From an uncultured bacterium (GTDB taxonomy: Bacteria; Patescibacteriota; Minisyncoccia; UBA6257; 2-01-FULL-56-20): DNA of 64,000 nt. This document shows, one piece after another, positions 12,476 to 41,456 of this stretch (its first letter is position 1; the number at the start of each line of letters is the position of its first letter). The notes under the pieces were generated by a model that worked only from the letters and a program-made list of their open reading frames with translations, had not been told where the DNA came from and made no database searches. The stretch spans positions 1-64,000 of the forward strand of contig CAWJQC010000007.1 of NCBI GenBank assembly GCA_963844965.1. Direction: 5' to 3'. Made by a program: the position numbers and the translations under genes.

Positions 12476-13295
12476 ATGGCGCGGGTAATTTCTATCTGCA
12501 ATCAGAAAGGCGGTGTCGGGAAAACCACCACGGCCGTTAACCTCGGCGCATATTTGGCGGCATACGGCAAGAGGACACTTCTTGTTGATTTTGACCCGCA
12601 GGCGAACGCGAGTTCTGCCGTCGGGCACGATTATACGGATACAGGTCCGAGCGTTTATCACGGAATTTTGGGCGAGGCGAAGCCGGATGAAGTCGTGAAA
12701 CCGACCCAACTTTTCAATTTTCACTACATTCCTTCCGCGCAGCATCTGGCCGGAGCGCTGATTGAGCTCGTGAATGTTCCCGAGCGGGAATATTTCTTGC
12801 GGAAATTTTTGAACAACCTGCGGCACAAGTACGACTATATTCTGATTGACCTGCCGCCGTCCCTGAATTTGCTCACCGTGAACGGCCTAGTGGCCTCGGA
12901 CGAGGTCCTGATTCCCATACAGGCGGAATATTATTCGCTGGAGGGGCTGGGGCAGATTCTTGAACACCGTGAATCTCGTGAGAGATAATTTGCGGCATCC
13001 GTTGCGGGTTGCCGGAGGTTTGGTTACAATGTATGACAAGCGCGAACATTTGAGCCGCGAAGTAGCTAAGAATCTCCGCCGCCATTTTCCACACAAGGTT
13101 TTTGAGACAGAAATCCCGCGGAGTGTCGCTCTGGCCGAAGCTCCGAGTTTCGGGAAGCCGATAATTTTGTATCGTCCCGATTCGCCCGGCGCCACGGCCT
13201 ACCGCGCGCTCGCGGAGGAAATTATTTCGCAGGAGAAAGAAATAATATCCGAGCAAGGAACGGTCGCCAGTGAAAATTTCGGAAATCTTGTATGA
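12476..13295 (+). CDS. parA: ParA/Soj partition ATPase, split by a 1-nt insertion near 12960
   Basis: Walker A KGGVGKTT in ORF 12476-12988. The C-terminal half (NLVRDNL...VFETEIPRSVALAEAPSFGKPI) is in the +1 frame, ORF 12960-13295. Confidence 0.75.
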
Positions 13296-13719
13296 GTGTG
13301 ATACTAATATACAAATGCATGCGAATGATACAAATAATACGAATAAGATAATTTATCCCGAATTATCTTATACAATCGTCGGCGCTTGTTTCAGCGTTCA
13401 CAACAATCTTGGCAGGTATGCGCGGGAAAAGCAGTATTGTGACGATTTGGCGAAAAGATTTAAAGAAATTAGACTGCCGTTCAGGAGAGAATTAACAGTT
13501 GGTGGTACGGGGAATATAATAGATTTTTTGGTTGATGATAAAATTATTTTGGAAATCAAGGCTAAGCGGTTGCTTGCTAAAGAAGACTATTTTCAAATCC
13601 AGCGTTACTTGCAGGCGTTGAATATCAAGCTAGGCTTATTGATTAATTTTCGCGACAAGTATTTGAAACCCGCAAGGATAGTAAAAATAGATACCAAGAC
13701 AAAAGAAAGATTTGTATAA
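13270..13719 (+). CDS. GxxExxY-family protein (PD-(D/E)xK-like)
   Basis: HNNLGRYAREKQY...GLLINF architecture typical of the GxxExxY family. Confidence 0.6.
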   Translation: MKISEILYECDTNIQMHANDTNNTNKIIYPELSYTIVGACFSVHNNLGRYAREKQYCDDLAKRFKEIRLPFRRELTVGGTGNIIDFLVDDKIILEIKAKRLLAKEDYFQIQRYLQALNIKLGLLINFRDKYLKPARIVKIDTKTKERFV

Positions 13720-13764
13720 TTCGTATCATTAGTACAATTAGTATATTGGTATCATTACATTATT

Positions 13765-14952
13765 ATGCTTGGCAAAGGACTTGAATCATTAATACCCCCG
13801 CACCAGAGCTCTGACGAGCACGGTATGGGGCAGGCCCCGCAACAGTCGCATGGAAGCGGCGACGGGCAACCCCAGTCGGATTTTCCGAACGATGAGGTGG
13901 TTTTGACGCCGTACGATGAAGCGGCGGCCACTACCCCACCAGTTCCAGTAGATCCGCAGCCGGTAAATCCCGCGCCCGCCTTCGCTCCTGAAGAGCTACG
14001 GCGAGGCGAGCCCGCCTCCACTAGTGAAGAGTTCCGGCAGAGCGAGCCCGCTGAAGGCGACTTCCGTTCAAAAATCAGAATAAATCTCCCCGAAGAAAAA
14101 AGAGGAAGAATAGCCCCATCAAGACCCGAAGAGGATTATGTTTTTCATATTGAAGTTTCCAAAATAAAAGCCAATCCGGCACAACCACGCAGGGATTTCA
14201 ACGAGGCGGGAATCAGGGAATTGGCACTGTCCATACGTGAATTCGGTTTTCTCCAGCCGCTCGTCGTCTCAAAAATAGAAAAAGAAACGGCGACGGGGAT
14301 TGATGTTGAGTATCAGCTCATCGCCGGCGAACGGCGCCTGCTTGCCGCGAAAATGCTAGGCTTGGAGATGGTGCCGGCGATCATCCGCAGGGTGGATTTG
14401 GAACGCGAAAAACTGGAATTGGCGGTGGTGGAAAATATCCAGCGTGAGGATTTGAATCCAATTGAGAAAGCAAGAGCGCTCGCGCGGCTTCAGGACGAAT
14501 TTCGCATGACGCAGCGGGAGATCGCGGCGAAGCTCGGCAAATCGCGGGAAGTCGTGGCGAACAGCGTGCGGCTCCTCGGCTTGCCGACATACGCGCAGGA
14601 GGCGCTCATAAAAGGACAAATTACGGAAAGCCACGGGCGGTTTCTTCTCGCGATTGATGACCAGGCGGCGCAGAAAAAATTGTTTGACGATATGCTGGCG
14701 CGGCATTTGACCATGCGGGAACTCAGAGAGCGCGTGCAGATGTCGAGAAGTAGGGGGCAAGAAGTAAGAAGTAAGGAAAACAGTGCGAACTTGACGCCGG
14801 AAATGAAAATGATGGAAGAGAAGTTGTCGGCAGAACTTGGGACGCCGGTGAAAATAGAAAAAGGAGCGAACACCGGCAAAATCACGATTACGTTTTACTC
14901 GGAGGAGGAATTGGAAAGTATCGTGCGAAAAATCGGAAAAGAAGAAGGTTAG
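13765..14952 (+). CDS. parB: ParB/Spo0J partition protein with a long Pro/Glu-rich N-terminal extension
   Basis: ParB box LIAGERRLLAAKMLGLEMVPAII and an HTH region. Sits downstream of parA. Confidence 0.85.
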   Translation: MLGKGLESLIPPHQSSDEHGMGQAPQQSHGSGDGQPQSDFPNDEVVLTPYDEAAATTPPVPVDPQPVNPAPAFAPEELRRGEPASTSEEFRQSEPAEGDFRSKIRINLPEEKRGRIAPSRPEEDYVFHIEVSKIKANPAQPRRDFNEAGIRELALSIREFGFLQPLVVSKIEKETATGIDVEYQLIAGERRLLAAKMLGLEMVPAIIRRVDLEREKLELAVVENIQREDLNPIEKARALARLQDEFRMTQREIAAKLGKSREVVANSVRLLGLPTYAQEALIKGQITESHGRFLLAIDDQAAQKKLFDDMLARHLTMRELRERVQMSRSRGQEVRSKENSANLTPEMKMMEEKLSAELGTPVKIEKGANTGKITITFYSEEELESIVRKIGKEEG

Positions 14953-15025
14953 GAGTTCGGATACTAGCCCGTAACCACGATATACATTTCGTAGGATAAA
15001 CTTTCAGAGATTACTAAATAAAGAT

Positions 15026-15811
15026 ATGGAACTAGATAATTTTCAAAAAAGTTTATTAAAGCATATAGAAAATTTTCGCAGAGTTTTAGCGACACCTTCT
15101 GGCGACTGGTCAGTTAAGGGTTTTATTGATATTGCAAAAAACATTTATACAATTTCAGTAGATACCAAAGTAGTATCTAAAATTATTGAATTGATGATGT
15201 TTCCTGTATTACAGAAATTCGCAAAGGAAAACAATTTTGAAATGACTTTTTGTGCAGAACAAAATCATTATCCAGATGTTACTTTTATAACAAAAGATAA
15301 GCGAAAAATTGCCCTCGATCTTAAAAGTACCTATCGAAAAAATCATGATGTAGTTTCGGGATTTACACTTGGAGCGTTTACTGGTTATTTCCGTTTTCGC
15401 GATTCAAATAAAAATATCACCTTTCCCTACAAAGAATATGATAAGCACTATATTCTCGGCATTATTTATACCCAACAGGGAGAATTGATTGACGAAAATA
15501 AAGTTTATATGATTGATGATTTAGAAGATATTTTATCGGTCGTCAAAGATTTTGATTTTCTTGTTCAAGAAAAATATAAAATCGCTAAAGATAGGCCGGG
15601 TAGCGGAAATACAAAAAATATCGGCTCTTGTGTGAAAATTAACGAGCTTAAAGAAGGCAGGGGGCCGTTTTCAAAACTCGGAGTTAAAATATTTGACGAT
15701 TTCTGGATGAATTATATGACCTTGGAAATGGCACGAAACGCAAAATTAAAGCGGCCGCCATACTCTAATCTCAAAGAGTATTTGAAATATCGCAACATAA
15801 AGAATATTTAA
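15026..15811 (+). CDS. type II restriction endonuclease, EcoRV-like
   Basis: Recalled similarity to R.EcoRV: SVDTKVVSKIIEL.., QNHYPDVTF (EcoRV QNHYPDFTL), RKIALDLKSTY (EcoRV KKIAIDIKTTY, D/K catalytic residues), GSGNTKNIGS. Confidence 0.7.
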   Translation: MELDNFQKSLLKHIENFRRVLATPSGDWSVKGFIDIAKNIYTISVDTKVVSKIIELMMFPVLQKFAKENNFEMTFCAEQNHYPDVTFITKDKRKIALDLKSTYRKNHDVVSGFTLGAFTGYFRFRDSNKNITFPYKEYDKHYILGIIYTQQGELIDENKVYMIDDLEDILSVVKDFDFLVQEKYKIAKDRPGSGNTKNIGSCVKINELKEGRGPFSKLGVKIFDDFWMNYMTLEMARNAKLKRPPYSNLKEYLKYRNIKNI

Positions 15812-15813
15812 CC

Positions 15814-16896
15814 ATGCAAATCGTGAAGCAACAGCAATCCCAATTATTCAACGAAATGCCAACGAAAAATGCTGGCGTTTTGCCATCTACTCGTTATCAG
15901 GGGAGTAAATATAAAATTCTCAAATGGATTGATTACTGCACAAAAGACTTAGATTTTGATTCAGTCCTCGATGCCTTTGGCGGAACTGGTTGTGTCGGCT
16001 ATATGTATAAGAAAAATGGTAAGCAAGTTTTTTATAACGACTCCTTAAAATTCAATCATTACGTTGGGCTTGCTTTAATAGAAAATAAAAATACTACCTT
16101 GAACGATAATGATTTGGATTTAATCTTAAAGAAAAATCCGAAAGTAAAATATCCTTCTTTTATCTACGACACGTTTCACGATATTTATTTCACCGACGAG
16201 GAGAATAAGTGGCTTGATGTGGTCGTAACAAATATTAGAAACATTAAAGATAAATATAAAAGGGCCTTGGCGTATTATGCTTTATTTCAATCCTGCATAA
16301 TTAAGCGGCCATACAATTTATTTCATAGGAAAAATCTATATATAAGAACAGCAGAGGTAGAAAGGAGTTTCGGCAACAAAAAAACATGGGATACTCCGTT
16401 TGAGAATCATTTTCTCAAGTTTGTTGAGGAAGCAAACAGTGCCGTGTTTGATAATGGCAAAAAAAATCAAGCAGTCCATTCAGATATTTTCGGCCTAACC
16501 ATTCCGAAAATTGACCTTGTTTATATTGATACGCCATATATTTCTGAAAAAGGTGTGGGCGTAAATTATTTTGATTTCTATCATTTTTTGGAGGGCATTG
16601 TTTTTTATGATGAATGGCCGAAACTGATTGATGAAAATTCAAAACATAAAAAAATAAAGAACGGAAAAAATGAATGGTGTAATAATGGTGAGATACACGG
16701 TGCTTTTGAGCGACTGTTCGATAAATTCAAAAAATCAATTTTGGTCGTTTCCTATCGTGATGATGGAATTCCGACAATCTTGGAACTGGTAAATATGCTC
16801 AAAAATCATAAGAAGTCCGTTGAAATAAAAAAAATAGATTATAAATACGTTTTAAGTAGTGGCAACTCTAAAGAGGTTTTGATTATAGCGAAATAA
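15814..16896 (+). CDS. Dam-family (D12 class) N6-adenine DNA methyltransferase, cognate to the EcoRV-like endonuclease
   Basis: Motif I DAFGGTGCVG and motif IV DTPY (DPPY-like). Starts 3 nt after the endonuclease stop. Low GC content. Confidence 0.8.
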   Translation: MQIVKQQQSQLFNEMPTKNAGVLPSTRYQGSKYKILKWIDYCTKDLDFDSVLDAFGGTGCVGYMYKKNGKQVFYNDSLKFNHYVGLALIENKNTTLNDNDLDLILKKNPKVKYPSFIYDTFHDIYFTDEENKWLDVVVTNIRNIKDKYKRALAYYALFQSCIIKRPYNLFHRKNLYIRTAEVERSFGNKKTWDTPFENHFLKFVEEANSAVFDNGKKNQAVHSDIFGLTIPKIDLVYIDTPYISEKGVGVNYFDFYHFLEGIVFYDEWPKLIDENSKHKKIKNGKNEWCNNGEIHGAFERLFDKFKKSILVVSYRDDGIPTILELVNMLKNHKKSVEIKKIDYKYVLSSGNSKEVLIIAK

Positions 16897-16914
16897 ATTA
16901 GTATTATTACACTT

Positions 16915-17175
16915 ATGCAGTGTTATATTATTTCATTTCAAACATCCCTCTCTGATAAAACGGGACTAGAGAGTGCCATAAAATCTTATGGCACGTGGGC
17001 AAAAATCACACCAAATACTTGGGCGGTGGTTTCTGATAGGCCCGCAAAAGATATTAGGGATCATATTCTTTCAAATTTGGCACAGGGAGATCGTCTTATG
17101 GTTGTTCGTTCGGGGACGGAGGCTGCGTGGAGCAACGCCATCGCTAGTAACGATTGGCTAAAAAAGAATTTGTAA
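16915..17175 (+). CDS. hypothetical protein
   Basis: 86-aa ORF inside the AT-rich island. Confidence 0.3.
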   Translation: MQCYIISFQTSLSDKTGLESAIKSYGTWAKITPNTWAVVSDRPAKDIRDHILSNLAQGDRLMVVRSGTEAAWSNAIASNDWLKKNL

Positions 17176-17588
17176 TTATGCCAAACGAGAACGAACAAAT
17201 TTCAGGGGGAGTAAAGATCAATCGAGCAAAACTTGGTTCAATTTCTCTGTATGATGTCACGGAAGACGAACTAGGCTTGTTAGAGCGCGGATCGCCAGCT
17301 TCAACTTACCTTAATTTCGCGATCGGACTTCTATCAATCGGAATTTCTTTTTTCATTAGTATTTTTTCAACCAAAATCGAAGATATAAAGGTTTATGCAG
17401 TATTTTGGGTTATTGCGCTTGTAACTACAATTGGCGGGATTGTACTTTTCGTAGTGTGGCGTCAAGCGAATAAATCAGCCGAAAATGTGATACAGAGGAT
17501 AAAGAACAGAATGAGTCCTGCTACACCTAGTTCTAATACCGCTCCGGTTGCTGGGCAAGAATCAAGTTCCCGGGCAGAAAATAATTAA
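17154..17588 (+). CDS. hypothetical membrane protein
   Basis: 144 aa with 2 TM helices. Confidence 0.35.
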   Translation: MAKKEFVIMPNENEQISGGVKINRAKLGSISLYDVTEDELGLLERGSPASTYLNFAIGLLSIGISFFISIFSTKIEDIKVYAVFWVIALVTTIGGIVLFVVWRQANKSAENVIQRIKNRMSPATPSSNTAPVAGQESSSRAENN

Positions 17589-17727
17589 TCGCCGCTAAAA
17601 ATTCTGTCCGGCCGAGCGAGGGCGCGGCGGAAGGGGGATGTAGGGGAATTCCGCCGCATCCGAGCGTCAGAAATCAGCGTCAGGATTTTCGCGAAAAAAA
17701 ATTCGGATTTTGTTTGGGATAGACAGC

Positions 17728-17808
17728 TTATGTCAATTTGTAGCTAATTTCCCTTACTCCTCTGATTTGTCTCAATTTGAAAATCAGTTTCTCTATTTTT
17801 TGCTTGCC
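17728..17808 (-). repeat. relA 3'-end repeat, copy 1 (encodes ..KQKIEKLIFKLRQIRGVREISYKLT*)
   Basis: An 81-nt paralog of the relA C-terminal codons plus stop. It differs from the true gene end mostly at synonymous sites. Confidence 0.8.
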
Positions 17809-18040
17809 CGGTAGTAGTTCTGCGATATTATTCACCCCAATTCGGAGCAGTTTCTCGTTGCCAACTTTGGTAGAATAATAAGTTGACCAAGCCCTCGGAG
17901 CTTAATCGTGGACAATCCGAATTGCAATCGCAGAATCACTACTGGGCTTATCGGTTGCGGCGATTTTAGTGCGGTTGACGGGCTTTTAACGGCAGTTTAG
18001 TATTATAAAAGCGTGTTATTTGGTGTGGATGGGGAGGTGA

Positions 18041-18277
18041 ATGATGTGCCAGGCCGACAGCGAAAAGACCGAACAAGAGCAAACAAAGATAGCGGAAAGA
18101 AAAGCTCTGGGATATTTGCGGGAGCACCCCGGTGCCGTGAGGCGGGATTTCTTGGTGGAATATCTCAGATTTGAGGGCGTGCCGGACCTCGTGGCGCGAG
18201 CCGCACTGAGGAATCTTGTCGACGAGAGGAAGGTTCTGTCAACGGAAAGCGGTCTGGAAATAAAATTGTCGCAGTAG
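18041..18277 (+). CDS. hypothetical protein
   Basis: 78-aa ORF between repeat copies 1 and 2. Confidence 0.3.
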   Translation: MMCQADSEKTEQEQTKIAERKALGYLREHPGAVRRDFLVEYLRFEGVPDLVARAALRNLVDERKVLSTESGLEIKLSQ

Positions 18278-18442
18278 GGGCTGGAAATCAGCCCCGTTTT
18301 TGTTTTCGTGGATGATGTGGAACTTGTCTTATATCGTACAATCGTTCAATATAAGACAGATTCGTTAAATCGCCTTGCAGCTTGTCCCAATCACGCCTTT
18401 CGCCCGCTTCAGTTTCAGAATTGACCTACCGACCGCCGGTTT

Positions 18443-18742
18443 TCAATAAGGCGAGGGGTTGGATTGGACGAGCGCGAAGTAACTCGCGGCATCATCACAA
18501 TCATTTTCTTGCATTTCCTCTATTATCATATTGAGCACCCCCCCATCTTCAATTGACAATATGTGTTCTGACGCGCCTTGATTATGCTTATTAATATGGG
18601 CTTCATGAACAAATTGCAGTGGTTCATCCGGTGCGATGCGGACATAATTAAAACCCGCTTTCTTAAAAAGTTCGATGGCTTCTTTCGCCTCGGTTCTGTG
18701 ATGTTCGCCTTCGTCAGCGGGTAATGATTCGTGGTTAATCAT
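18443..18742 (-). CDS. hypothetical protein
   Basis: 99-aa ORF. Confidence 0.3.
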   Translation of the reverse strand: MINHESLPADEGEHHRTEAKEAIELFKKAGFNYVRIAPDEPLQFVHEAHINKHNQGASEHILSIEDGGVLNMIIEEMQENDCDDAASYFALVQSNPSPY

Positions 18743-18949
18743 ATAAAGAAGCGACTTCGTAAATTCACCTTATATTTTACATTTTATCTGTCGTTGTCAA
18801 TAGCGCGATGGTTTAGAGTTTTTGCGTGAATTACCATACCAAACAAGAGTTTGGCTTAGATGGATTATGTGTCGCTCCTCGTTTGATATTGGGATGAGCC
18901 TTGCCGAACGGTGATGTCTGGAAGCTTTGACGGGATGTAGCGGTTATTT

Positions 18950-19028
18950 ATCATCAAATCAATTTGTAGCTAATTTCTCTTACTCCTTTTATTTGTTTCA
19001 ATTTGAAAATCAGTTTTTCTATTTTCTG
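18950..19028 (-). repeat. relA 3'-end repeat, copy 2 (encodes KQKIEKLIFKLKQIKGVREISYKLI*, identical peptide)
   Basis: Encodes the same 25-aa peptide and stop as relA, with several synonymous nucleotide differences. Confidence 0.8.
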
Positions 19029-19105
19029 CTTGTCTGCGACGCACTTGACCTTATCTGATTCATATATTATTATGTCAGTTAGCAAAATTCACTTGGAGGG
19101 CTTGG

Positions 19106-19717
19106 GTGATAAGCAGATTCCTGTTGCTTTCGCATCAGATTCTCGTATTGGGTTGCGTTTCCGCCGTCGGAAGCATTGCGTACGTAATTTCTAACTGGTG
19201 GACGGCAAGGAAATATGAGGACCGAGGCGTGCCTGGCCGGTATTTTGCCGTCTATTTTTTTACGGCGGTGATTACCGTGCCCGCCACCGAAGAGTTGATT
19301 TGTAGACTACCGTTGCCTATTGCATTCAGCGGTATTTCTGCCGGAGCTTGGGCGGGCATCGTGTTGACGGGCATTGTGTTCGGGCTAGTTCATTACCCCA
19401 AGGGTTTTAGAAAAGACAGAGAAGATGCAGTTTCAATAGGTGGAAACGCCAAATTAACTGATTGGTTCTCAAAACCGATCATGGGAAATAAGTGGCTGCC
19501 ACCGAAATCGTTCGTTCTCAGGGCTTTCTTGGGAGTAATGTGCGGCTATTGCGCCATTAGACTCCAGTCCCTGTACGCGGCATTTGCCGTCCACGCGTTA
19601 TGGAATTCAGTAATGTGGGTCCCGTTGGCGGCGCTGATCTGTTCTTATATGCTGCGCATCAAGGTGAAGGAGTATTTCAGGCATCGGCGTTCTAGAAATT
19701 TTGAGCTGCAACACTAA
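19106..19717 (+). CDS. CPBP-family (CAAX/Abi) intramembrane metalloprotease
   Basis: Motifs ATEELICRLPL (EExxxR), GLVHYPKG and AVHALWNS (HxxxN). Confidence 0.7.
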   Translation: MISRFLLLSHQILVLGCVSAVGSIAYVISNWWTARKYEDRGVPGRYFAVYFFTAVITVPATEELICRLPLPIAFSGISAGAWAGIVLTGIVFGLVHYPKGFRKDREDAVSIGGNAKLTDWFSKPIMGNKWLPPKSFVLRAFLGVMCGYCAIRLQSLYAAFAVHALWNSVMWVPLAALICSYMLRIKVKEYFRHRRSRNFELQH

Positions 19718-19734
19718 GTTGCGGCTCTTATTTT

Positions 19735-19813
19735 TTATATCAGCTTATAACTAATCTCCCTCACTCCTTTAATTTGTTTCAATTTGAAAATCAGCTTTTC
19801 TATTTTTTGCTTG
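19735..19813 (-). repeat. relA 3'-end repeat, copy 3 (the actual gene end)
   Basis: Last 25 codons plus stop of the relA ORF. Gene-proximal member of the three-copy repeat family. Confidence 0.8.
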
Positions 19814-21453
19814 TTAACAATTACGCATTCAATCTTGCTCACGGAAAAACGGCCGCCGGCGATATTTTGCGTGTTGAAGTCGCTGATGTTTACATGAGAA
19901 CGCGCTATTGTCGTGGAGAAATCTTTTATGAGGCCGACGCGGTCGTCGGCAACGATGCGGAGTTCGGTCCTTGTCGGCAATCTTGAGCGCTTTCCCAGGA
20001 TGTTCTTCGCTCTGAGCGACGCCCTGATGTGTTCGCGGGCCATTGAGGTTTTGACGAACTTCAGCCAGTCCTCCGACGGCTTTTTGTTTTTTTGCGTCAT
20101 GATTTGCACCAGGTCGCCGGACTTGAGTTTGTGGTTTAACGGAACGAGCTGGTTGTTTACCTTTGCGCCGGCGCAGGAGTTGCCGATTTCGCTGTGAATT
20201 TGGTAGGCGAAATCTACCGGCGTGGCGTCCGCCGGCAGATCAATGACATCGCCTCTCGGCGTGATTACGAAGATGCGCTTTTTGAAAAAGTCAACTTTCA
20301 TCGCCCGCAGAAATTCTTCTGGGTCTTCGGCGCGTTTTTCCTCGCTGCGGTTCGTGATGGCGGCGGAGAGCCAGTTCTTCAGCTGTTCCACCCATCTCAG
20401 TTCCTCGGAGAGGTGTTTTTGCGGTATTTTTTCGCCGCGCCTTGATTGTTCGTAGAGCCAGTGGGCGGCGATGCCGTTTTCGTTCTCCTCATGCATCTCT
20501 TTCGTGCGGATCTGGAACTCAATTATTTTTTCCTCCGGCCCGATGACGGTCGTGTGCAAACTCCTGTAGCCGTTCGGCTTCGGCATGGCGATATAGTCCT
20601 TGATGCGTCCGGGGAGAGGTGGCCAGGCGTGGTGGATAGCGCCGAGGGCGGCGTAGCATTCCGAAACGTTGCTCACGATGATACGCATGGCGACGAGATC
20701 GTAGACGTTCTCTATTTCCATATCGCGCTCCAAAAGCTTGTGATATAAGCTCGCGTAGCGTTTCGCCCTGAAATCAATGGAGATGGGCGTGAGATTGTTT
20801 TCTTTGAGTATCGCCTCCACCGCCGGTTTTATCTTTTTCAGGTACTCCAGCCGTTTTTCGTATTTTTCCTCAACGGTCTTGTGCAGCCACTCCGATTCGC
20901 GCGGATGAATATAGGGAAAAGCGAGGTCGCGAAGTTCGCCCGACAGGTTCTGCATGCCGAGGCGATAGGCGAGCGGCGCATAGATCTCGTCCGTTTCAAG
21001 CGCGATTCTCTTTTGTTTGATGGGCGGCAGGGCGGCGAGCGTTTTCATGTTGTGTAGCCGGTCGGCAAGTTTTATGAAAACGACCCTCAGGTCCTTGCTC
21101 AGCGCGAGTATCATTTTGCGGAGGTTTTCTATTTTGCTTTCCACGCCGCGGTATTTAATAAGGCCGAGTTTCGTGACTCCATCAACGAGGAAAGCGATGT
21201 CCGGGCCGAACTCGCGCCGCACGTCGTCAATGGTTATGCCCGTGTCCTCAACCGTGTCGTGCAGGAGTCCCGCGGCTATCGTGGTTTCGTCAAGATGCCA
21301 CTGGTTCAGGGTTTCGGCGGTGGCCAAGGGATGCGTGAGATACAGCTCGCCACTCTCGCGCTTTTGCTTCGCATGCGCTTTTTCGGCAAATTTATACGCT
21401 TTGGCTATCACGCCGTCGGGATAGGTTTTTATTATCTCCTTGATTGTCATCAT
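19735..21453 (-). CDS. relA: bifunctional (p)ppGpp synthetase/hydrolase, RelA/SpoT family
   Basis: HD domain (HDTVEDT), a nucleotidyltransferase RelA/SpoT domain, then TGS and C-terminal ACT-like regions. 572 aa. Confidence 0.9.
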   Translation of the reverse strand: MMTIKEIIKTYPDGVIAKAYKFAEKAHAKQKRESGELYLTHPLATAETLNQWHLDETTIAAGLLHDTVEDTGITIDDVRREFGPDIAFLVDGVTKLGLIKYRGVESKIENLRKMILALSKDLRVVFIKLADRLHNMKTLAALPPIKQKRIALETDEIYAPLAYRLGMQNLSGELRDLAFPYIHPRESEWLHKTVEEKYEKRLEYLKKIKPAVEAILKENNLTPISIDFRAKRYASLYHKLLERDMEIENVYDLVAMRIIVSNVSECYAALGAIHHAWPPLPGRIKDYIAMPKPNGYRSLHTTVIGPEEKIIEFQIRTKEMHEENENGIAAHWLYEQSRRGEKIPQKHLSEELRWVEQLKNWLSAAITNRSEEKRAEDPEEFLRAMKVDFFKKRIFVITPRGDVIDLPADATPVDFAYQIHSEIGNSCAGAKVNNQLVPLNHKLKSGDLVQIMTQKNKKPSEDWLKFVKTSMAREHIRASLRAKNILGKRSRLPTRTELRIVADDRVGLIKDFSTTIARSHVNISDFNTQNIAGGRFSVSKIECVIVNKQKIEKLIFKLKQIKGVREISYKLI

Positions 21454-21500: not shown

Positions 21501-22565
21501 ATGATGGCAAACCATTTCTTGCGTGAGACGCTGGGATCCATAGGCGCGGTGCTGCCGGATTTCAGGCACGTAAGAGTTGACTGGGAAAGACTGAATTTTG
21601 TCGCGGAGGAGAACGCGCTTATGGATTACGATTTGCCGTGCTGGGATTTTTCCGGATGCTATCCGCAGTCCGACGAAGCGGCCCTCTCGCATTTTTTCTG
21701 GGGGAACGTGATAAATTTCTGTTTTGATCACTCGCGGGGCAACGGGGACGGCGAACTACTTAAGTTCAAAGTTCGCAACTGTGACGGAAAAATTATATCC
21801 GGTTCTTTCGGGATGCAATCCTGCTTTTACAGGACCTACAAAGAGTTGCCGATTACGACGGAAGATTTGAAAGCGCGGATTGGCACGTTTTCCAAGTTTG
21901 AGGAAATGTTCCGGGGAGTGGATTCTTCAATGCCGCTTCTCAGTCAACGCTGGGAAATGCTCAATGAAGCTATCGTGGTACTTGAAAATAGGTTCGGCGG
22001 GCAAGTGCAGAACTTACTTGAAGAAGGGTGCTACAGGGCTTTTGGCGAAGGCGGGGGGACGCAGCCGGGCATGGTGGAGTTGCTGGTTGATTACTTTCCT
22101 AACGCTTTTGGAGACGATAAGTTTATAGATTACAAGGGATGTTTTAATCCGCCCGGAAAAGCATTTTACTTTTACAAACGGGCACAGCTTTTTGTGATGA
22201 TGTATCATGGGCGCGCCCTGAGATCAGGCGGAAAACTTAAGTCCATTGATGGTATTGAAGAGATCGGTCCGCTCGTAGATTATATCATTCCCAAACGATA
22301 CGTCGCGGACAGCGTGCTTGTGTACGGCGACGAGCTTCGCGAGAAAATTGAAAGAGCATTGCCGATTGAAAGACACAGTAGGGAAGTGCTTGAAATTCGG
22401 CTCGGAACATACCTGGCCTTTTGGAAAGAGCTTGAGATAATAAATAAGATAAGAGCGATGGGCTGCATCGAGCCGATTCATGTCGGGCATCTTGACTATC
22501 GCAGATTCAGCCGCAGCGATGGCGGTAAATTTAAGCACTATTTTTGTCCTTGCACCGATTGCTGA
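21501..22565 (+). CDS. conserved hypothetical protein (possibly DUF2419/queuosine-salvage-like; tentative)
   Basis: 354 aa with a WGNVINFCF motif and a C-terminal HYFCPCTDC. The family assignment is from memory and is weak. Confidence 0.4.
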   Translation: MMANHFLRETLGSIGAVLPDFRHVRVDWERLNFVAEENALMDYDLPCWDFSGCYPQSDEAALSHFFWGNVINFCFDHSRGNGDGELLKFKVRNCDGKIISGSFGMQSCFYRTYKELPITTEDLKARIGTFSKFEEMFRGVDSSMPLLSQRWEMLNEAIVVLENRFGGQVQNLLEEGCYRAFGEGGGTQPGMVELLVDYFPNAFGDDKFIDYKGCFNPPGKAFYFYKRAQLFVMMYHGRALRSGGKLKSIDGIEEIGPLVDYIIPKRYVADSVLVYGDELREKIERALPIERHSREVLEIRLGTYLAFWKELEIINKIRAMGCIEPIHVGHLDYRRFSRSDGGKFKHYFCPCTDC

Positions 22566-22669
22566 TTTTATTGGGCAGGGCGCTTCTTCGGAGGCGCTTT
22601 TTTGTTTTGTAAGCGCAAGATGCAAAAATCAGAATGTAGAATTGGTACAATTTTGTTATACTTTTAAAT

Positions 22670-22969
22670 ATGAATAAATACCAAAAAGAAGTGGACGAGT
22701 GGTTCAAAAAAGAAGGGTGGCAGTATTGGGAACCGCTAGCCATAACAGCCCGTTTATTTGAAGAAGGAGGCGAATTTGCCCGTCTTATCAATCACATCTA
22801 TGGCTCCAAGAAAAAGAAACCCGATGAGCGAAAGCAGGATATAGAGGAAGAGATCGGAGATATAATTTATACTCTTATTTGCTTTGCGAATGAGAACGGG
22901 ATAGATCTTGATGTCGCAATCCGCAAAAGTTTGGATAAGGTTGTAAAAAGAGACAAAGATCGATATTAA
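22670..22969 (+). CDS. MazG-like nucleotide pyrophosphohydrolase
   Basis: EEGGEFARL ... EEIGDIIYTL motif pair of the all-alpha NTP pyrophosphatases. Confidence 0.65.
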   Translation: MNKYQKEVDEWFKKEGWQYWEPLAITARLFEEGGEFARLINHIYGSKKKKPDERKQDIEEEIGDIIYTLICFANENGIDLDVAIRKSLDKVVKRDKDRY

Positions 22970-25257
22970 TCCGATTTCACTTTAGATTTTGCCGCGCGCG
23001 GTTTACTTTTTTTCTCATTATCGTTTTTCTTCTCTTCTCCCTTAGCCTTCCACGCTTCAAATAATGCCGCGAGTTCGGCTTCGCTCTCCGGTTTTTTGTT
23101 GGCGATGAAAGTGCACTCCGGATAGCGCGTGCAGGCGTAGAACGGCCGGCCGCGTCCACGCGATTTTTTCTCCACAATGTCGCCGATTTTGCAGTTGGGG
23201 CACTTGAAACCGGTTTTGTTCCAGATTTTCATTACGCCTTTGCAATTCGGGTAGTCGCTGCAGCCGAGGAAGAAGCCGAAGCGGCCGCGCCGCACGGTCA
23301 TCGGTTTTCCGCAGATCGGGCAACACTCGTCTTTCGTTTTTTCCTCAAGCTCCCTGATCTTCGCCGCCTCCTCGGGCATTGGGAGTGTTACCTTGCTTTC
23401 CGGGTCGGGGCAGGCAAGGAATTTTCCGTTCCTGCCGAACTTTATGAGCATCGGTTTGCCGCAGTGCGGGCAGGGAGTTTCGGAAATCTCAACCTGTTTT
23501 TCCACGGCTTTTTCTTTTTCTTCCAGATTTTTTTTGAAAGGGACGTAAAATTCGCGGATGACGGGAACCCATTTGGTCTTTCCTTCGGCGATCTCGTCCA
23601 GCTCTTCTTCCACGTGCGCCGTAAATTTGATGTCCACGATTTCCGGGAAATGTTCCACGAGCAGATCGTTTACGAGCGTGCCGATTTCCGTCGGGTGGTA
23701 TTTTTTTTCTATCTTTTCCACATAGCCGCGTTCCTGTATGGTTGAAAGAGTCGGCGCGTACGTTGATGGGCGGCCGATGCCGTCGGCTTCAAGCGCCTTT
23801 ATGAGCGTGGCGTCCGTGTAGCGCGGCGGCGGTTCGGTGAAATGTTGCAGCGGCAGGAGTTCTTTGAGCGTCAGTTTCTCGCCGATTTCTAGCGGCGGAA
23901 GCGTATTTTCTTCCTCCCCGTTTTCATCGCCTTTTTCCGTGTAAATTTTCATAAAGCCGTCAAATTTCACGCTGACTCCTCTTGCGCGGAAAAGATATTT
24001 GCCGTCGCGCTTGTCCGCCATAGCTTTCTCGTCCGCCGAAGTTTTAACGAAGGCGGAAGCGGCGGTGGAGGCGCCGATTGTCGCGCGCGTTTCTTCAAGA
24101 AGCGCGGCCTGCATCTGAGAAGCAAGCGTGCGTTTATAGATGAGGTCGTAAAGTTTCGTCTGACCACGGTCGCGGAGACCGATGGCATCCGGTGTTTTTC
24201 CGAAATCGGTTGGTCTTACGGCTTCGTGCGCTTCTTGCGCGCCCTTGGATTTATTCGTATAAACACGTGGCGCGGCGAGGGCGTAGTTCACTCCGAAGCG
24301 CTCCGTGATTACGGCGCGTGCCTGGGCTAAGGCGGAGGTCGCGAGATTCAGGCTGTCCGTTCTCATATAAGTTATAAAACCCTCTTCGTAAAGTTTTTGG
24401 GCGATGACCATCGTTTGTTTTGCCGAAAAACCGAAACGCCGCGCCGCTTCCTGCTGCAGGGTTGAGGTCGTGAAGGGAGGAGCGGGGACGCGTGTCATTT
24501 CTCTGGTTTCAACGCCGTAAACCGCGTAATCCGCGCCTTTAAGTCCGGAAATTATTTTTTGCGCTTCCGTTTCGCTCGCCACGTCCATTTTTCCGAGATT
24601 CTTTCCGTCAACGAAATAAAGCGTTGCGCGAAACGGCTTTGGCACTTTGCGTTTTACTCCGCTTTTCATGAAATCCGCTTCAATCGTCCAGTATTCTTCT
24701 TTCTTGAAATTTTGGATTTCGCGTTCGCGCTCAACGACCAGGCGCATGGCCACGCTTTGCACGCGCCCAGCGGATAGGCCATAGCGTATTTTTCTCCAGA
24801 GAAACGGCGAGAGTTCGTATCCCACAAGCCGGTCCAAAACCCGCCGCGCCTGCTGGGCGTCAACGAGGTTTATGTCAATATCGCGCGGACTCGCGAGCGC
24901 GTCTTTTATGGCGGGTTTGGTGATCTCATGGAATGCTATCCGTTCGTATTTCTTTTCCTTCCCAAGTTCAAGCGCCTGGACAAGGTGCCAAGCGATAGCT
25001 TCTCCTTCGCGGTCTTCGTCTGTCGCGAGAATAACCATTTCGGCTTTTGCCACGTTTTTCTTGAGCGTTTCGACCACCCCGTGTGCCTTTTTAGGTATCA
25101 CATATGTCGGCTTGAAATCGTGTTTTACGTCAATGCCCAGTTTGCTTTTCGGAAGGTCGCGGAGGTGACCATAAGAGGACTCAACGAGATATTCTCTGCC
25201 GAGGAACTTTGAGATAGTCTTTGCCTTAGTTGGAGATTCTACTATTACAAGGTTCAT
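22966..25257 (-). CDS. topA: DNA topoisomerase I
   Basis: N-terminal Toprim (LVIVESPTKAKTI), the topoisomerase IA core, and C-terminal zinc-ribbon repeats (C..C..C..C). Confidence 0.95.
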   Translation of the reverse strand: MNLVIVESPTKAKTISKFLGREYLVESSYGHLRDLPKSKLGIDVKHDFKPTYVIPKKAHGVVETLKKNVAKAEMVILATDEDREGEAIAWHLVQALELGKEKKYERIAFHEITKPAIKDALASPRDIDINLVDAQQARRVLDRLVGYELSPFLWRKIRYGLSAGRVQSVAMRLVVEREREIQNFKKEEYWTIEADFMKSGVKRKVPKPFRATLYFVDGKNLGKMDVASETEAQKIISGLKGADYAVYGVETREMTRVPAPPFTTSTLQQEAARRFGFSAKQTMVIAQKLYEEGFITYMRTDSLNLATSALAQARAVITERFGVNYALAAPRVYTNKSKGAQEAHEAVRPTDFGKTPDAIGLRDRGQTKLYDLIYKRTLASQMQAALLEETRATIGASTAASAFVKTSADEKAMADKRDGKYLFRARGVSVKFDGFMKIYTEKGDENGEEENTLPPLEIGEKLTLKELLPLQHFTEPPPRYTDATLIKALEADGIGRPSTYAPTLSTIQERGYVEKIEKKYHPTEIGTLVNDLLVEHFPEIVDIKFTAHVEEELDEIAEGKTKWVPVIREFYVPFKKNLEEKEKAVEKQVEISETPCPHCGKPMLIKFGRNGKFLACPDPESKVTLPMPEEAAKIRELEEKTKDECCPICGKPMTVRRGRFGFFLGCSDYPNCKGVMKIWNKTGFKCPNCKIGDIVEKKSRGRGRPFYACTRYPECTFIANKKPESEAELAALFEAWKAKGEEKKNDNEKKSKPRAAKSKVKSD

Positions 25258-25402
25258 TTTGGTGGTTATTGTTTTTGTCCCGATTTTTTCAAAATTTTCA
25301 ATTTTGTAAAAAATCGTGGATCCTCGATAAATCTATCCCGACAAAGTCGCGGATGATTTATCGGGACTTTGGTTGGTGATTCAACGATGACGAGGTTCAT
25401 TG

Positions 25403-27710: not shown

Positions 27711-28110
27711 AGGTCGGCCGTGATATATTAAGATTTTACGATAAAGTTACCGGCATGCGAAAATTTTTTAATAAACATCCAGAATTTACGCTTGCAGTTA
27801 TAGCTGCGGTATTTTTGATAATCATGGCCGCGTCCTACGTTTGGGGCGTCACGACGATTGTCACCAACGTGAGCAAGGCGACCAGTGTCGGAGAGGAAAA
27901 GATTCCGCAGGCTGGATTTGATATCCAAGGAGCCGCCGGTCTGGACTTAAAGGGGCTTATTCGTTAAAATCGGCTTTTGCGGGCATCTTAGCTTGCCCCG
28001 CCAAATTTTTGAAAGCGCCTTTAGGGCCGACGCTTGCGAGTCGGCCTCCCGACACCGACCAATGTCGGTCGTCGGGACTCAGTGGTAAGAATATTTTACA
28101 ACCAATTAAT

Positions 28111-28182
28111 GCGTCCTTAGCTCAGTGGCAGAGCGCTTGCATGACACGCAAGAGGTCGCAGGTTCAATCCCTGCAGGACGCA
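28111..28182 (+). tRNA. tRNA-Val (anticodon GAC)
   Basis: GCGTCCTTAGCTCAGTGGCAGAGCG CTTGC ATGACAC GCAAG ..GCAGGTTCAATCCCTGCAGGACGCA. Confidence 0.85.
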
Positions 28183-28329
28183 CACAGCAGTGACAGGTGT
28201 TTCACGACCGCGTCAGCCGACTCTTTCGCGCGACCGCGAGAGCCGACCCAGTTGGACGGAATCATCTTCACATACAAAATACCGTCGCAGAATTGCGGCG
28301 GTATTTTGTATTTCGGCTTCGCCTTTTCG

Positions 28330-29673
28330 CTATGCCGTTTCCTTCGGCATCAAGCTGATCACTCTATTCTTGAGCATCAGTCGGCTCTTGAGGTTCGACA
28401 ACAATTCCCGTTTTTCCGTGATCGTTCCTTCGGTCAGGATATATATCGCATAGGACTTAGCATCGAACGTCTCCGGCTCGGCGTTCTGCTCCCGGCTCTT
28501 GCCCAAGGCAATCCTTCGGAACTTGTTGTACCGCGTGATCTCGTCCTTGAATTTCTGCTTGATGCCAAGCTCGTTCATATCTAAGGTGTCCAGCATGGCA
28601 ATGATCTGTTCGATGATTTCCTCCTCCTTGATGTATCCACACTGGCAATTCACGTCACGTTTCTTTGTGCAGCCGTAATAAACGTATCGATGGGTATTGC
28701 CGTTTTTCTGGTATTTCCACTTCTCGGACGCAGTGATTCCTGACCCACACAAGCCGCAGGTTATCAATTTCGTGAAGGCGAATTCCTTGTCGTTTTTGAC
28801 CTCGCTCCGCTTCAGCTGCTCGCGCGCCCGGTCAAAGAGTTCTTTCGTGATAATTGGCGTATGCTGCCCCGTATACCAGTTTCCCGACCCCTCCGGGAAT
28901 TCAAAGACGCCGTAGTAGAAGGTTTTCTGCAGGATGATAAAGATGTTGGATAACGAGAGGTACTTCCCGTTCGTCGTCTTGAATTTTAGATCATTCTTGA
29001 GCCACAGGTAGAGACGCCGTCCCGACCACTGATCATTCGCCACCTTCTCAAACATCTGGCGGATGACGGGAGCTCGAACTGGATCCACGATCACCTCGCA
29101 GGGCTTGTCCTTGCGCTTTTCGTTCAGGTATCCCGTCGGCGCGATGGATGGCCGCAATCCCTGCTCGCAACGTGTTCGCAACCCTCGCTTCACGTTTTCC
29201 GATTTGTTGTCGTTCTCAAGTTTCGCTGTCGAACACAGAATCATCAGCATAAACTTCTCGCTTGGGTTGTTCGTAAATTTCTGACTGAAGGTTCTGATTT
29301 CGATTAAGAGTTTCTGGTCCATGAGATCGACGAGCGAACCGAGATCACCAGCATTGCGGCTAAGACGGTCCGGTGCCCACGTAAGGATGCCGTTGAATTT
29401 GCCATCTTTGATATCTTTGAGGAGACTATTGAATACCTCACGCTGGCCGACGGCTTTCGCGGAGTGCGATTCCTTCCTTATCTCCACGATCTCAAGTCCG
29501 TCGCGCTCGGCGACCCGGGTCATCTCCTTGATTTGCGAATCAATACTCAGGACTTGTTGCTCCTCAGATTCCGTTGATTTTCTTGCGTATAAACAGTATG
29601 CGACCTTTATGGGAAGCGGTTGATTGGTTGAGGTCGCCGCTCCCACCGACCCCTTGATTAGGTTTGTCATCAA
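28330..29673 (-). CDS. large serine recombinase (integrase)
   Basis: N-terminal resolvase catalytic domain (YARKSTESEEQ..S.), a recombinase domain and a zinc ribbon (CGLCG...C.C). Lies about 150 nt from tRNA-Val. Confidence 0.85.
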   Translation of the reverse strand: MMTNLIKGSVGAATSTNQPLPIKVAYCLYARKSTESEEQQVLSIDSQIKEMTRVAERDGLEIVEIRKESHSAKAVGQREVFNSLLKDIKDGKFNGILTWAPDRLSRNAGDLGSLVDLMDQKLLIEIRTFSQKFTNNPSEKFMLMILCSTAKLENDNKSENVKRGLRTRCEQGLRPSIAPTGYLNEKRKDKPCEVIVDPVRAPVIRQMFEKVANDQWSGRRLYLWLKNDLKFKTTNGKYLSLSNIFIILQKTFYYGVFEFPEGSGNWYTGQHTPIITKELFDRAREQLKRSEVKNDKEFAFTKLITCGLCGSGITASEKWKYQKNGNTHRYVYYGCTKKRDVNCQCGYIKEEEIIEQIIAMLDTLDMNELGIKQKFKDEITRYNKFRRIALGKSREQNAEPETFDAKSYAIYILTEGTITEKRELLSNLKSRLMLKNRVISLMPKETA

Positions 29674-32175: not shown

Positions 32176-32264
32176 GTTTTGAAAATCAAACCCCAACCGA
32201 AACGAGAATTTAAATATAAAAAATACCGAATACCAATATTCCAACAGCTCAACTCCCAAAGTCC

Positions 32265-33137
32265 CTATTCACGAGAGAAAACAACCTGAGGGCGGAACCC
32301 CAAGTCGTCGTCCCGTGCGGCAGGGCCATCCCAGTACACGTCGGAGAGGCCACCGTAGCCTGAGCTGCCGCCATCGAGGCGCCTCGCGCCCTTCTGGTAA
32401 GAATCTTCAAACCATTCCCAGGTATTGGTATCGCCCCACTCGGGGTGATAGGCGTTGCCGATGAAGTTCCATTCAATGGCTCGCGGCAGGCGGAGACACT
32501 CTTCGGGCACGTCCATTGCCTCCGCTATGGCTTTTTTCACTTCCGGCTTGTTCAGCTCGTCCCAGGAGATGTTGAAGCGGGAGCCTTTCGTCTCAAAGTC
32601 CGTAATAATCTTCTTTTTCCTCAAGTCCTCCAAGACGGGTCTGAGAACGTCGTCCTTATATATTTGCTTGCCGCTCTCGTACTTCGGCTTCCCGCGGGTG
32701 TCGACGAGAATCCAGGAGGCGGGGAGCTTCAGGGCGTCCTTCGGCAAATCGTCCTTTTTAACATCGGCATAAAATTCAATTCCCCAACCATCGGCATATT
32801 TTTTGCCCGGCTTCTTTTTCCAACCAGGCAAATCGCGCTCTTCTGTTAGTTCTTCATCGGGCAAGTAATGGAGCTCGAAGCCCATTTCCTTCCACTTCTC
32901 GTATCGTTCGGGTGTGATTTCTTCCGGCAGCGGTGGAACCTCAACGTCGTAGCCGAAGAATTCCCTGAGTTTCTCGGTTTCCTGTTCCATTAGTTCCCTG
33001 AACTCTGCCGAGGATTCGGGCGCTTTCCTTTTCTCCTTCTCCGCCTCGCCCAATGCTTTTTCCACCTTCTTCTGGACGGTGGTTTTGTACTGGTCGGGGT
33101 TATACTCTTCGTAGATTTTGTAACCGGGGAAGGGCAT
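32265..33137 (-). CDS. DGR target protein 3 (C-terminal C-type-lectin/FGE-like variable domain)
   Basis: Paralog of 36921-37799 and 37889-38737. C-terminus reads WEWFEDSYQKGARRLDGG...GFRPQVVFSRE and contains VR3. Confidence 0.8.
   Translation of the reverse strand: MPFPGYKIYEEYNPDQYKTTVQKKVEKALGEAEKEKRKAPESSAEFRELMEQETEKLREFFGYDVEVPPLPEEITPERYEKWKEMGFELHYLPDEELTEERDLPGWKKKPGKKYADGWGIEFYADVKKDDLPKDALKLPASWILVDTRGKPKYESGKQIYKDDVLRPVLEDLRKKKIITDFETKGSRFNISWDELNKPEVKKAIAEAMDVPEECLRLPRAIEWNFIGNAYHPEWGDTNTWEWFEDSYQKGARRLDGGSSGYGGLSDVYWDGPAARDDDLGFRPQVVFSRE
32285..32390 (-). repeat. DGR variable repeat VR3
   Basis: 106-nt match to the TR at 36576-36681 with 10 mismatches, all at TR adenines (coding sense). 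Confidence 0.85.
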
Positions 33138-33142
33138 GGGGG

Positions 33143-35164: not shown

Positions 35165-35201
35165 GTTGTTTTGTTTATTATACCGCTTATACGCAAAAAA
35201 A

Positions 35202-36278: not shown

Positions 36279-36551
36279 GATCGCTTCACTCTCGGCGCGA
36301 GGATAGAAAACACCGCCGTCGAACTCTTAATGCTTATCATGCGGGCGAATTACGGGCAAGCCGTAGCGCGCGTCGGTTTTTTAAACGAAGGAAGTATCCT
36401 GCTCGATATGCTCAAGGTATTCGTGCGGCTCGCGAAGGATAAGAAAGCTATACACCCGAATCAGTATTTAATGCTCGAGGAACGGTTGCAGGAAATAGGC
36501 CGCATGCTCGGCGGTTGGATAAAGTCCTCAAGTGCAAAAAGACCCGTGTGA
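36171..36551 (+). CDS. avd: Avd-like four-helix-bundle protein (DGR accessory variability determinant family)
   Basis: FPKHDRFTLGARIENTAVELLMLIMRAN and LEERLQEIGRMLGGWI match the four-helix-bundle/Avd family. Lies opposite to the RT. A probable later start at M36198. Followed by a hairpin terminator at 36536-36566. Confidence 0.65.
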   Translation: MTIQTVPDRMLDLPIFHKTYDFIIVFSNYVVKFPKHDRFTLGARIENTAVELLMLIMRANYGQAVARVGFLNEGSILLDMLKVFVRLAKDKKAIHPNQYLMLEERLQEIGRMLGGWIKSSSAKRPV

Positions 36552-36575
36552 GCGGGTCTTTTTGTGAGATACGAT

Positions 36576-36681
36576 CTGAGGGCGGAACCCCAAGTTGTCG
36601 TTCCGTTCGGCAGGGTCATCCCAGTTCACGTTGGAGAGGCCACCGTTGTCTGAGTTGCCGCCATCGAGGCGCCTCGTGCCC
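36576..36681 (-). repeat. DGR template repeat (TR)
   Basis: 106 nt. Coding-sense translation is Asn/AAC-rich (..GNSDNGGLSNVNWDDPAERNDNLGFRPQ). It is the invariant partner of VR1-3, and every VR difference maps to a TR adenine. Confidence 0.88.
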
Positions 36682-37799: not shown

Positions 37800-37888
37800 G
37801 GTGTCAAATGAATGGTCTTATTTGTTTATTGTTATAAAATTTTTTTTGAAAGCCTACCAAAGAAACAAGAGAACAATTGTCAAAGTTC

Positions 37889-41421: not shown

Positions 41422-41456
41422 ACAGTGATTCGACGGCTTTTTGCCGTTTTTTTTCG

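Follow-up and report, generated by a model that had tools for sequence, protein, structure and literature searches.

Stacked copies of the relA 3′ end point to serial gene acquisition between relA and parB in an uncultured patescibacterium

A 64,000-nt stretch of DNA from an uncultured member of the Patescibacteriota (lineage UBA6257; GenBank assembly GCA_963844965.1, contig CAWJQC010000007.1, positions 1 to 64,000), hereafter called the window, carries the 3′ end of its relA gene four times: once as the end of the intact gene and three times as orphan copies downstream of it, with other genes lying in between. We favor, with about an even chance of being right, the explanation that the orphans are former relA ends, displaced when DNA from related genomes was imported through homologous recombination anchored inside relA. 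Patescibacteria, members of the candidate phyla radiation (CPR), have tiny genomes and are largely uncultured; to our knowledge, little has been learned about how they acquire genes, and we know of almost no mobile-element biology in the group.

An initial annotation of the window, made from the sequence alone, had proposed that three of these gene ends mark serial site-specific integrations. That interpretation is partly supported by the work described here. Serial acquisition, with each event bringing a replacement gene end, is borne out by synonymous-only divergence of the copies, by the inserted state of the DNA, and by a second genome with the same architecture, but the site-specific mechanism is not supported. 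Our analysis adds to the earlier account a fourth, decayed copy, the second genome (locus L050), and the mosaic structure of relA itself.

Four copies of the relA 3′ end

The relA gene (19735-21453, minus strand) encodes a long RelA/SpoT homolog (RSH) of 572 aa with HD, RelA_SpoT, TGS, and ACT domains, as seen from the list of open reading frames (ORFs) and from Pfam. Its last 25 codons and TAA stop form the resident tail, copy C (19735-19812, minus strand). Sequence comparison confirmed two orphan tails in the same orientation, copy B (18954-19031, minus strand) and, outermost, copy A (17728-17805, minus strand). Read in the sense of relA, the order is relA with copy C, a gene for a CPBP protease (antisense), copy B, a 99-aa ORF (sense), copy R (described below), a 78-aa ORF (antisense), a 142-nt element, copy A, genes for a 144-aa membrane protein and a phrog_1090 protein, a restriction-modification (R-M) pair, and parB. 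A 23-nt probe taken from the repeat matched the 64 kb at the sites of A, B, and C only, with 0 matches expected by chance.

Copies B and C encode the same peptide, KQKIEKLIFKLKQIKGVREISYKLI*, in different DNA. Eleven codons are changed between them, all 11 synonymously (P of ~1e-7 under neutral change), and the stop codons are also unlike, that of B being TGA. The peptide of copy A has three conservative substitutions (K>R, K>R, and I>T). Over 78 nt, the three copies are 85 to 89% identical, with longest common runs of 16 to 23 nt; per 75 nt, there are 8 differences between A and B, 11 between B and C, and 12 between A and C. The orientation of the copies, the synonymous changes in B, and the substitutions in A all stand as initially annotated. 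The coordinates then given for B (18950-19028) were about 4 nt out of register, and the same ~30 nt had been said to follow every copy, whereas we found that B and C agree at about 10 of the 14 to 17 nt downstream of the stop and that A shares nothing with them there.

The tail peptide is strongly conserved across the clade, with up to 23 of 25 identities in proteins that are 67 to 77% identical overall, so differences that are mostly synonymous are what would be expected between true relA-end alleles. Drift in place, in a copy that is not translated, would not leave only synonymous changes, which argues that B and C each evolved as a translated, working relA end in separate lineages and were later brought together. 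Copy A probably diverged as a working relA end likewise. The same pattern of divergence excludes in-place duplication and a long target-site duplication as the source of the copies.

It also bears on the least probable of the explanations that we weighed, an artifact in the form of either a chimeric metagenome assembly of strain variants joined via the tail or a recent in-place tandem duplication. The source is metagenome assembled, repeats can mislead assemblers, and the contig of the closest relative (locus L046) ends shortly after relA. However, an artifact of this kind fits poorly with copies that differ at 8 to 12 of 75 nt and share no run longer than 16 to 23 nt; each orphan has cargo, rather than relA body, on its left, an arrangement that no misjoin through the repeat would create; the independently assembled L050 locus has a like architecture; and in-place duplication cannot give 11 synonymous and 0 nonsynonymous differences.

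Copy R (18365-18442, minus strand) was detected with a tail profile and six-frame translations. Its peptide, KPAVGRSILKLKRAKGVIGTSCKAI*, is in frame, with the stop aligned, and 43 of its 78 nt are identical to those of copy C. Apart from the other copies, no site on either strand of the window reaches that score (background mean, 21; standard deviation, 4; maximum elsewhere, 41). Homology to the relA tail is clear from codon -18 to the aligned stop. Copy R reads “ILKLK,” the clade-consensus type, where A, B, and C read “IFKLK,” and its GC content is 53%, versus 24 to 29% in the other copies. R is an old, decayed orphan. Low GC and GC3 (GC content at third codon positions) of the tail was considered as a signature of foreign origin and rejected, since GC3 in the tail lies below that of the gene body in most relatives and the bias is clade-wide.

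The point at which homology to relA begins differs from one orphan to another: codon -25 in A, where the edge is sharp; at least codon -26 in B; about codon -18 in R; and about codon -20 in the orphan of L050. Upstream of B, 11 further relA-like codons, reaching ~19064 (codon -36), align in the full profile; alone, this extension is not significant, and we take it as no more than suggestive. The idea of a common left boundary, at codon -25, was dropped after per-codon analysis, given the starts at -18 in R and -20 in the L050 orphan.

The relA-parB junction in related genomes

The RelA proteins most like that of the window belong to Patescibacteria in the Parcubacteria/Paceibacteria group; the next relatives are 80, 77, 74, and 72% identical to it. 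We compared about 57 relA loci, in which the order dprA-topA-relA, followed by convergent parB-parA, is conserved. The check called for by the initial annotation, a comparison with relatives in which the region downstream of relA is uninterrupted, could be made directly: the stops of relA and parB are 0 to 40 nt apart in many genomes, including those whose RelA proteins are 74, 72, and 70% identical to that of the window. Since the two genes adjoin in most relatives, the 4.8 kb between relA and parB here is lineage-specific, inserted DNA. Against one relative with an empty site (L048), the spacer gave matches of 6 to 7 nt only.

Other genomes carry 0.2 to 6 kb of unrelated cargo between relA and parB, usually without an orphan tail, and none of the cargo genes of the window has relatives in the compared loci. 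The junction is thus a recurrent insertion site in this Paceibacteria clade, a hot spot of gene acquisition.

The architecture of the window recurs in one other genome. In L050 (GCA_040960625.1; RelA 72% identical), an amino-acid permease gene comes after relA, and an orphan tail, “...SKLILKLKQIKGVREISYKLI*,” comes after the permease gene, at ~13727-13789. This L050 orphan has the clade-consensus type of tail. In L046, whose RelA is 80% identical, relA is likewise followed by the beginning of this permease gene, at which point the contig ends. A self-tail scan of 44 loci and a tail-profile sweep of 57 loci found no further orphans beyond that of L050, and an HMMER scan of 1.84 billion representative proteins returned truncated RelA genes only and no further orphan.

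Three other observations concern partial gene copies and variable intervals in these loci. In L019, a 38-codon 5′ fragment of an ExoIII gene is fused to another ORF inside a 6-kb relA-parB insert (13322-13437 and 15354-15452). In L033, a gene start (MIIIIGLGNPGEQYK) is repeated as a 15-codon copy 183 nt upstream of the true one (2082-2114 and 2265-2297). The gap between topA and relA is variable too: in the window (21501-22969) it holds a queuosine-salvage gene and a MazG-like gene, and in relatives it holds MazG alone (L046), the Q_salvage gene (L047 and L050), a MOSC gene (L051), or, in several others, nothing.

Mosaic structure of RelA

Sliding identity and a breakpoint test identified the 3′ part of relA, encoding residues ~423 to 572 (19735-20187, minus strand), as recombinant. 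Residues 1 to 422 of the window RelA are nearest to P0002 (86%), whereas residues 423 to 572 are nearest to P0004 (77%, versus 60% for P0002). The breakpoint at about residues 422 to 425 is supported by a Fisher test (P = 1.4e-11) and by permutation (P < 1/300), and the nucleotide profile agrees. The RelA proteins P0002 (P = 2e-8) and P0004 (P = 1e-10) are mosaic as well. Over residues 1 to 440, the proteins fall into two groups, one of the window, P0002, and P0003 and the other of P0004, P0005, and P0006; in the last ~130 residues, nearest neighbors come from opposite groups, the window pairing with P0004 (77%) and P0002 with P0006 (75%).

P0002 and P0006, which are the RelA proteins of L046 and L050, belong to unlike groups in the N part. 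They have in common the type of their C part, a tail of the unusual “KLKQVKGV” type, and the permease gene directly after relA, and in this case the 3′ part of relA and the cargo therefore appear to travel together. Such apparent coinheritance is seen in this pair; the cargo of the window itself has no relative with which to compare it.

The recombinant tract of ~450 nt points to homologous recombination and not to an attachment (att) site, because att sites are much shorter than some 150 codons. No integrative cassette would bring ~450 nt of relA with it, whereas a chromosomal fragment of a related genome would. Site-specific integration leaves both this tract and its linkage with cargo unexplained.

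Tests of site-specific integration

The main rival is site-specific recombination in trans. In this scheme, cassettes without an integrase of their own, each bearing a replacement relA end as its att site, would have integrated one after another through a recombinase that is encoded elsewhere or has been lost. We hold this to be possible but doubtful. Several traits of integrative arrays are indeed present: direct repeats of the target 3′ end bound each unit, the gene is left intact, and the site is unoccupied in relatives. The units are compact and carry single genes, their junctions are all clustered in the tail, and the copies share an identical run of 16 to 23 nt with a palindrome. In addition, A and B are pristine but the internal copy R is decayed, as if the outer sites of a mobile composite were under selection. 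Opposed to these traits are the differing boundaries of the orphans and the cargo of relatives at the relA-parB junction, most of which lacks repeats.

The search for an enzyme took in every ORF between 13.7 and 22.9 kb and the large ORFs elsewhere in the 64-kb window. No recombinase was found in or beside the relA array or within 10 kb of the L050 array. The initial statement that the segments hold no integrase is thus correct for the array, but a large serine recombinase is encoded elsewhere in the window (28330-29673). Recombinases of this kind do circulate in these genomes, which favors the rival: the one in the window is 90.6% identical to that of L051, even though the RelA proteins of the two genomes are 69% identical. 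In both genomes, however, the gene occupies the same site, beside a conserved 70-aa gene near dprA, and in the window it belongs to an island of its own. This island spans 21.4 kb (27990-49406), and the perfect 20-nt direct repeat at its two ends, AGCTTGCCCCGCCAAATTTT (27990-28009 and 49387-49406), bears no relation to the relA tail. No other recombinase was found in the window. The island is a recently mobile, defense-type island and gives the look of a classical site-specific island in this genome; the relA array is unlike it.

As side observations on the island, it starts beside a tRNA-Val gene (28111-28183), and it encodes DNA methylases, VWA and AAA_5 proteins, and a reverse transcriptase and contains insertion sequence (IS) copies.

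The repeat itself gave no sign of a mobile carrier. Neither the exact core nor either of two codon-degenerate patterns back-translated from the tail occurred in viral contigs, and the tail peptide was absent from phage and plasmid records. In a metagenome collection, the core had one match, a chance match inside a malate synthase gene, and literature searches found no report of integration at a relA end. The array therefore has neither the recombinase nor the attP-like copy by which families of integrative elements are recognized.

A nucleotide-level recombination core within the repeat was considered but found no clear support. B and C have in common a 23-nt identical run with a 13-nt palindrome, but the invariant run of 16 to 23 nt is not longer than chance would give (run-length test, P = 0.09 to 0.13), and the palindrome occurs in none of the relA tails of relatives. 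The codon differences between B and C are massed in the 3′ half of the tail (2 of 13 versus 9 of 12 codons; P = 0.005), which could be taken for a conserved att core in the other half. The same asymmetry, 3 versus 9 differences, separates copy C from the natural relA tail of L051, and it therefore reflects the common ancestry of “F-type” tails. The repeat does not fold into an attC-like hairpin (single-stranded DNA folding z scores from 0.25 to -1.5), and no IntI gene is found among the annotated ORFs of the window. A by-eye comparison of the module ends with a 28-bp dif-like site (two 11-bp arms and a 6-bp spacer) gave no convincing match.

The palindrome and the intact coding frames could also be read as signs that the extra tails are kept for a function, either as translated mini-ORFs or as a DNA or RNA signal, such as a parS-like site for ParB or a terminator. 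We think this improbable. In its favor, A and B keep an intact frame and stop, the core reads TGTTTCAATTTGAAAA near parB and is parS-like, and an upstream copy of the first 11 codons of topA is under coding selection in three genomes (described below), which indicates that gene-end mimics can be functional. Orphan tails are nevertheless absent from 55 of the ~57 relatives, and R is decayed. No convincing ribosome-binding site (RBS) precedes the orphan ORFs, and the tails have no Rfam match and no unusual folding. The 16-bp palindrome of canonical parS, TGTTTCACGTGAAACA, had no match with up to 3 mismatches in the window and none in 53 loci, and the candidate parS-like site was rejected.

Homology-anchored import as a possible origin of the array

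In the explanation that we favor, an incoming fragment from a related genome would carry the 3′ part of relA, its tail, and adjoining cargo. Its left side would be joined by homologous recombination inside relA, the current crossover lying near residue 422, and its right side would be attached, illegitimately or through short homology, somewhere in the last 18 to 36 codons of the resident gene. The donor end would become the working relA end, and the old end would be pushed downstream as a nonfunctional orphan. Two recent events may account for the array, with A orphaned first and then B; R would have arrived as an old orphan within the second-to-last import, along with the 99-aa and 78-aa ORFs. 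Cargo lying between two tails could then be passed on to relatives by double homologous recombination, in the relA body on the left and in the tail on the right.

The differing codons at which orphan homology begins, the recombinase-free arrays, and the host-like GC content of the segments between tails count for homologous import. The window also contains dprA and type IV pilus or secretion genes, which are compatible with DNA uptake, and we speculate that the donor fragments may have entered by transformation.

Other observations weigh against this origin. The four junctions between cargo and tail all lie within the last ~36 of the 572 codons, whereas joints made at random downstream of residue 422 should be spread over ~450 nt; one has to assume either that the AT-rich tail is preferred or that longer repeats are unstable. 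The units between tails are compact single-gene cassettes with their own promoter or terminator, as in cassette systems, and the palindrome-containing run common to B and C would sit easily with such a system. Orphan tails are found in only 2 of the ~57 genomes. No donor genome was found. Finally, the nearest relative of the C part is only 77% identical, and the crossover in relA may be older than the cassette insertions and unrelated to them.

In another variant, the conserved 78-nt relA end would itself be a portable module for recombination. Single-gene cassettes with this end at their borders would accumulate at relA and move between related Patescibacteria without an integrase of their own, driven by host recombination (RecA or Xer type) or by an unrecognized trans-acting enzyme. 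We consider this unlikely; if true, it would amount to integron-like gene capture built on the end of a housekeeping gene.

Comparison with known systems

The mechanism proposed here, homology-anchored import, appears by analogy to most resemble homology-facilitated illegitimate recombination (HFIR) and recombination hot spots flanked by core genes. HFIR is known from naturally transformable bacteria. Its definition is given in PMC3240628. The likeness to HFIR lies in a proposed one-sided homologous anchor in a conserved gene, with foreign DNA adjoining it and no dedicated recombinase needed. With HFIR and the core-gene-flanked hot spots together, the locus shares a mosaic flanking gene with a clear breakpoint and the presence of competence-type genes (dprA and pilus genes). 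It differs from HFIR in that its junctions are tighter than random joints should be. HFIR is known mainly from laboratory crosses, and we know of no description of natural stacks of displaced gene ends as its footprint.

Arrays that grow by accretion at the 3′ end of a gene include the integrative and conjugative elements (ICEs) ICESt1 and ICESt3 with the integrase-less cis-mobilizable elements (CIMEs) at fda and the staphylococcal cassette chromosome (SCC) elements SCCmec and pseudo-SCC at rlmH/orfX. Like the relA array, these consist of tandem units bounded by direct repeats of the target 3′ end, with the gene left intact and some units lacking a recombinase. The repeats of ICE/CIME and SCC arrays have an identical short core, and a cognate recombinase is present in at least one unit or in related strains. 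Here, in contrast, neither recombinase nor attP was found, the repeats are 85 to 89% identical over 78 nt with no significant core, and the exchanged tract extends 450 nt into the gene.

The tycheposons of Prochlorococcus reportedly use tyrosine recombinases and target tRNA genes. They and tRNA-gene islands resemble the present locus in a streamlined genome with hypervariable islands, repeated insertion at a gene end, partial gene-end repeats, and remnants that consist of cargo only; the relA locus differs in having a protein-gene target and no associated recombinase. Tycheposons are the subject of bioRxiv 10.1101/2020.12.28.424599.

In rhs and cdiA loci, recombination within the conserved upstream portion supplies the gene with a new C-terminal end; its former end is displaced together with the neighbor gene, and orphans stack. 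The piling up of displaced gene ends downstream is common to those loci and to relA. The displaced ends of rhs and cdiA are toxin tips with immunity genes, whereas at relA the encoded peptide is the same and nothing evident connects the cargo with RelA. Integrons, finally, also stack compact single-gene units at one site; unlike integrons, the relA array has no IntI gene and no attC hairpin fold, and its repeat is a coding gene end.

Whatever the mechanism, the locus can be read as a record of repeated acquisition at one position, in which successive relA ends are kept in order, and the relA-parB junction is a variable locus that could be mined across metagenomes. If import anchored in relA is the correct explanation, the array would be the trace left in nature by homology-anchored gene capture, of the transformation type, in CPR bacteria. 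If the site-specific rival is correct instead, the relA end would be a new protein-gene attachment site used by integrase-less cassettes in this phylum. Either way, the cargo, with its CPBP protease, small proteins of no assigned function, and R-M system, looks accessory or defense type.

Cargo genes and remaining lineage-specific DNA

The cargo between the tails is as initially described, namely a CPBP/Abi-type protease and two small ORFs of 78 aa (plus strand) and 99 aa (minus strand). The segment between C and B encodes a CPBP/Rce1-like intramembrane protease of 203 aa (19106-19717, plus strand; Pfam). Its gene has a sigma-70-like promoter, TTGACC-17-TATTAT, that adjoins copy B (19045-19073, plus strand), an RBS (GGAGG), and a GTG start at 19106, and a hairpin terminator lies between its stop and that of the convergent relA (19703-19727, plus strand). 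A word-index search of a 5.8-billion-protein collection found no relative but the protein itself, which is a very divergent or orphan member of its family.

The next segment contains the 99-aa ORF (18443-18742, minus strand), which has the orientation of relA, and the 78-aa ORF (18041-18295, plus strand), which has its own terminator at 18277-18295; neither has an assigned function. The segments between tails have GC contents of 46 to 48%, which is host-like and unlike the 33% of the R-M pair. A 142-nt element with 21-nt terminal inverted repeats (17806-17947) directly adjoins copy A at its left edge. The element is strongly structured, with a folding energy of -54.9 kcal/mol (z = -4.7). It occurs once in the window and matched nothing in Rfam, and it may be either a remnant resembling a miniature inverted-repeat transposable element (MITE) or a small structured RNA.

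The remaining lineage-specific DNA, from parB to copy A (14953-17727, plus strand), contains an EcoRV-type R-M pair and encodes the 86-aa phrog_1090 protein and the 144-aa membrane protein. The R-M pair (15026-16896) comprises an EcoRV-family restriction enzyme and a D12-class adenine methylase, with a GC content of 33% versus 50% for the genome. No relA-tail copy flanks this block, and the R-M pair is without flanking repeats. It appears to be a separate acquisition from a low-GC source.

Beyond this block lies parB (13765-14952, plus strand; Pfam), which is convergent with relA. The parA ORF (region 12476-13719) is 170 aa long, compared with ~275 aa in relatives. The missing part may be encoded in a different frame (12960-13295), as would follow from either a frameshift or an error in sequencing. 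Between parA and parB is a gene for a PD-(D/E)XK nuclease (13270-13719).

Other features of the window

A copy of the first 11 codons of topA (MNLVIVESPTK) lies at 25368-25400 (minus strand), two nucleotides after the dprA stop, and differs from the real start (25225-25257) by 7 synonymous and 0 nonsynonymous changes. The leader in which it lies is found in three genomes (window, 25258-25400; L006, 7527-7660; L050, 6497-6627) whose RelA proteins are only 65 to 72% identical. The ~110-nt leader spacer is highly conserved at the nucleotide level and has two hairpins with 5 compensatory pairs; it has no Rfam match. The arrangement has the appearance of a leader ORF, conserved and translated, whose product mimics the N terminus of TopA, together with a structured leader. 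We had considered the orphan topA start as a second recombination scar and rejected this, given its conservation with the structured 110-nt leader in three genomes.

The region 32231-38737 contains a reverse transcriptase gene (35202-36278, minus strand) and a 111-nt repeat in four copies of 88 to 93% identity. One copy is intergenic (36571-36681) and is a candidate template repeat, and the other three lie at the 3′ ends of paralogous genes (32265-33137, 36921-37799, and 37889-38737). The region is a probable diversity-generating retroelement.

We also detected three copies of an rve-type (DDE) IS at 1-1155, 41332-42570, and 45757-46995. The two internal copies are identical over 1155 nt and mutually inverted, and they stand around a methylase gene (42532-43794) in an arrangement like that of a composite transposon.

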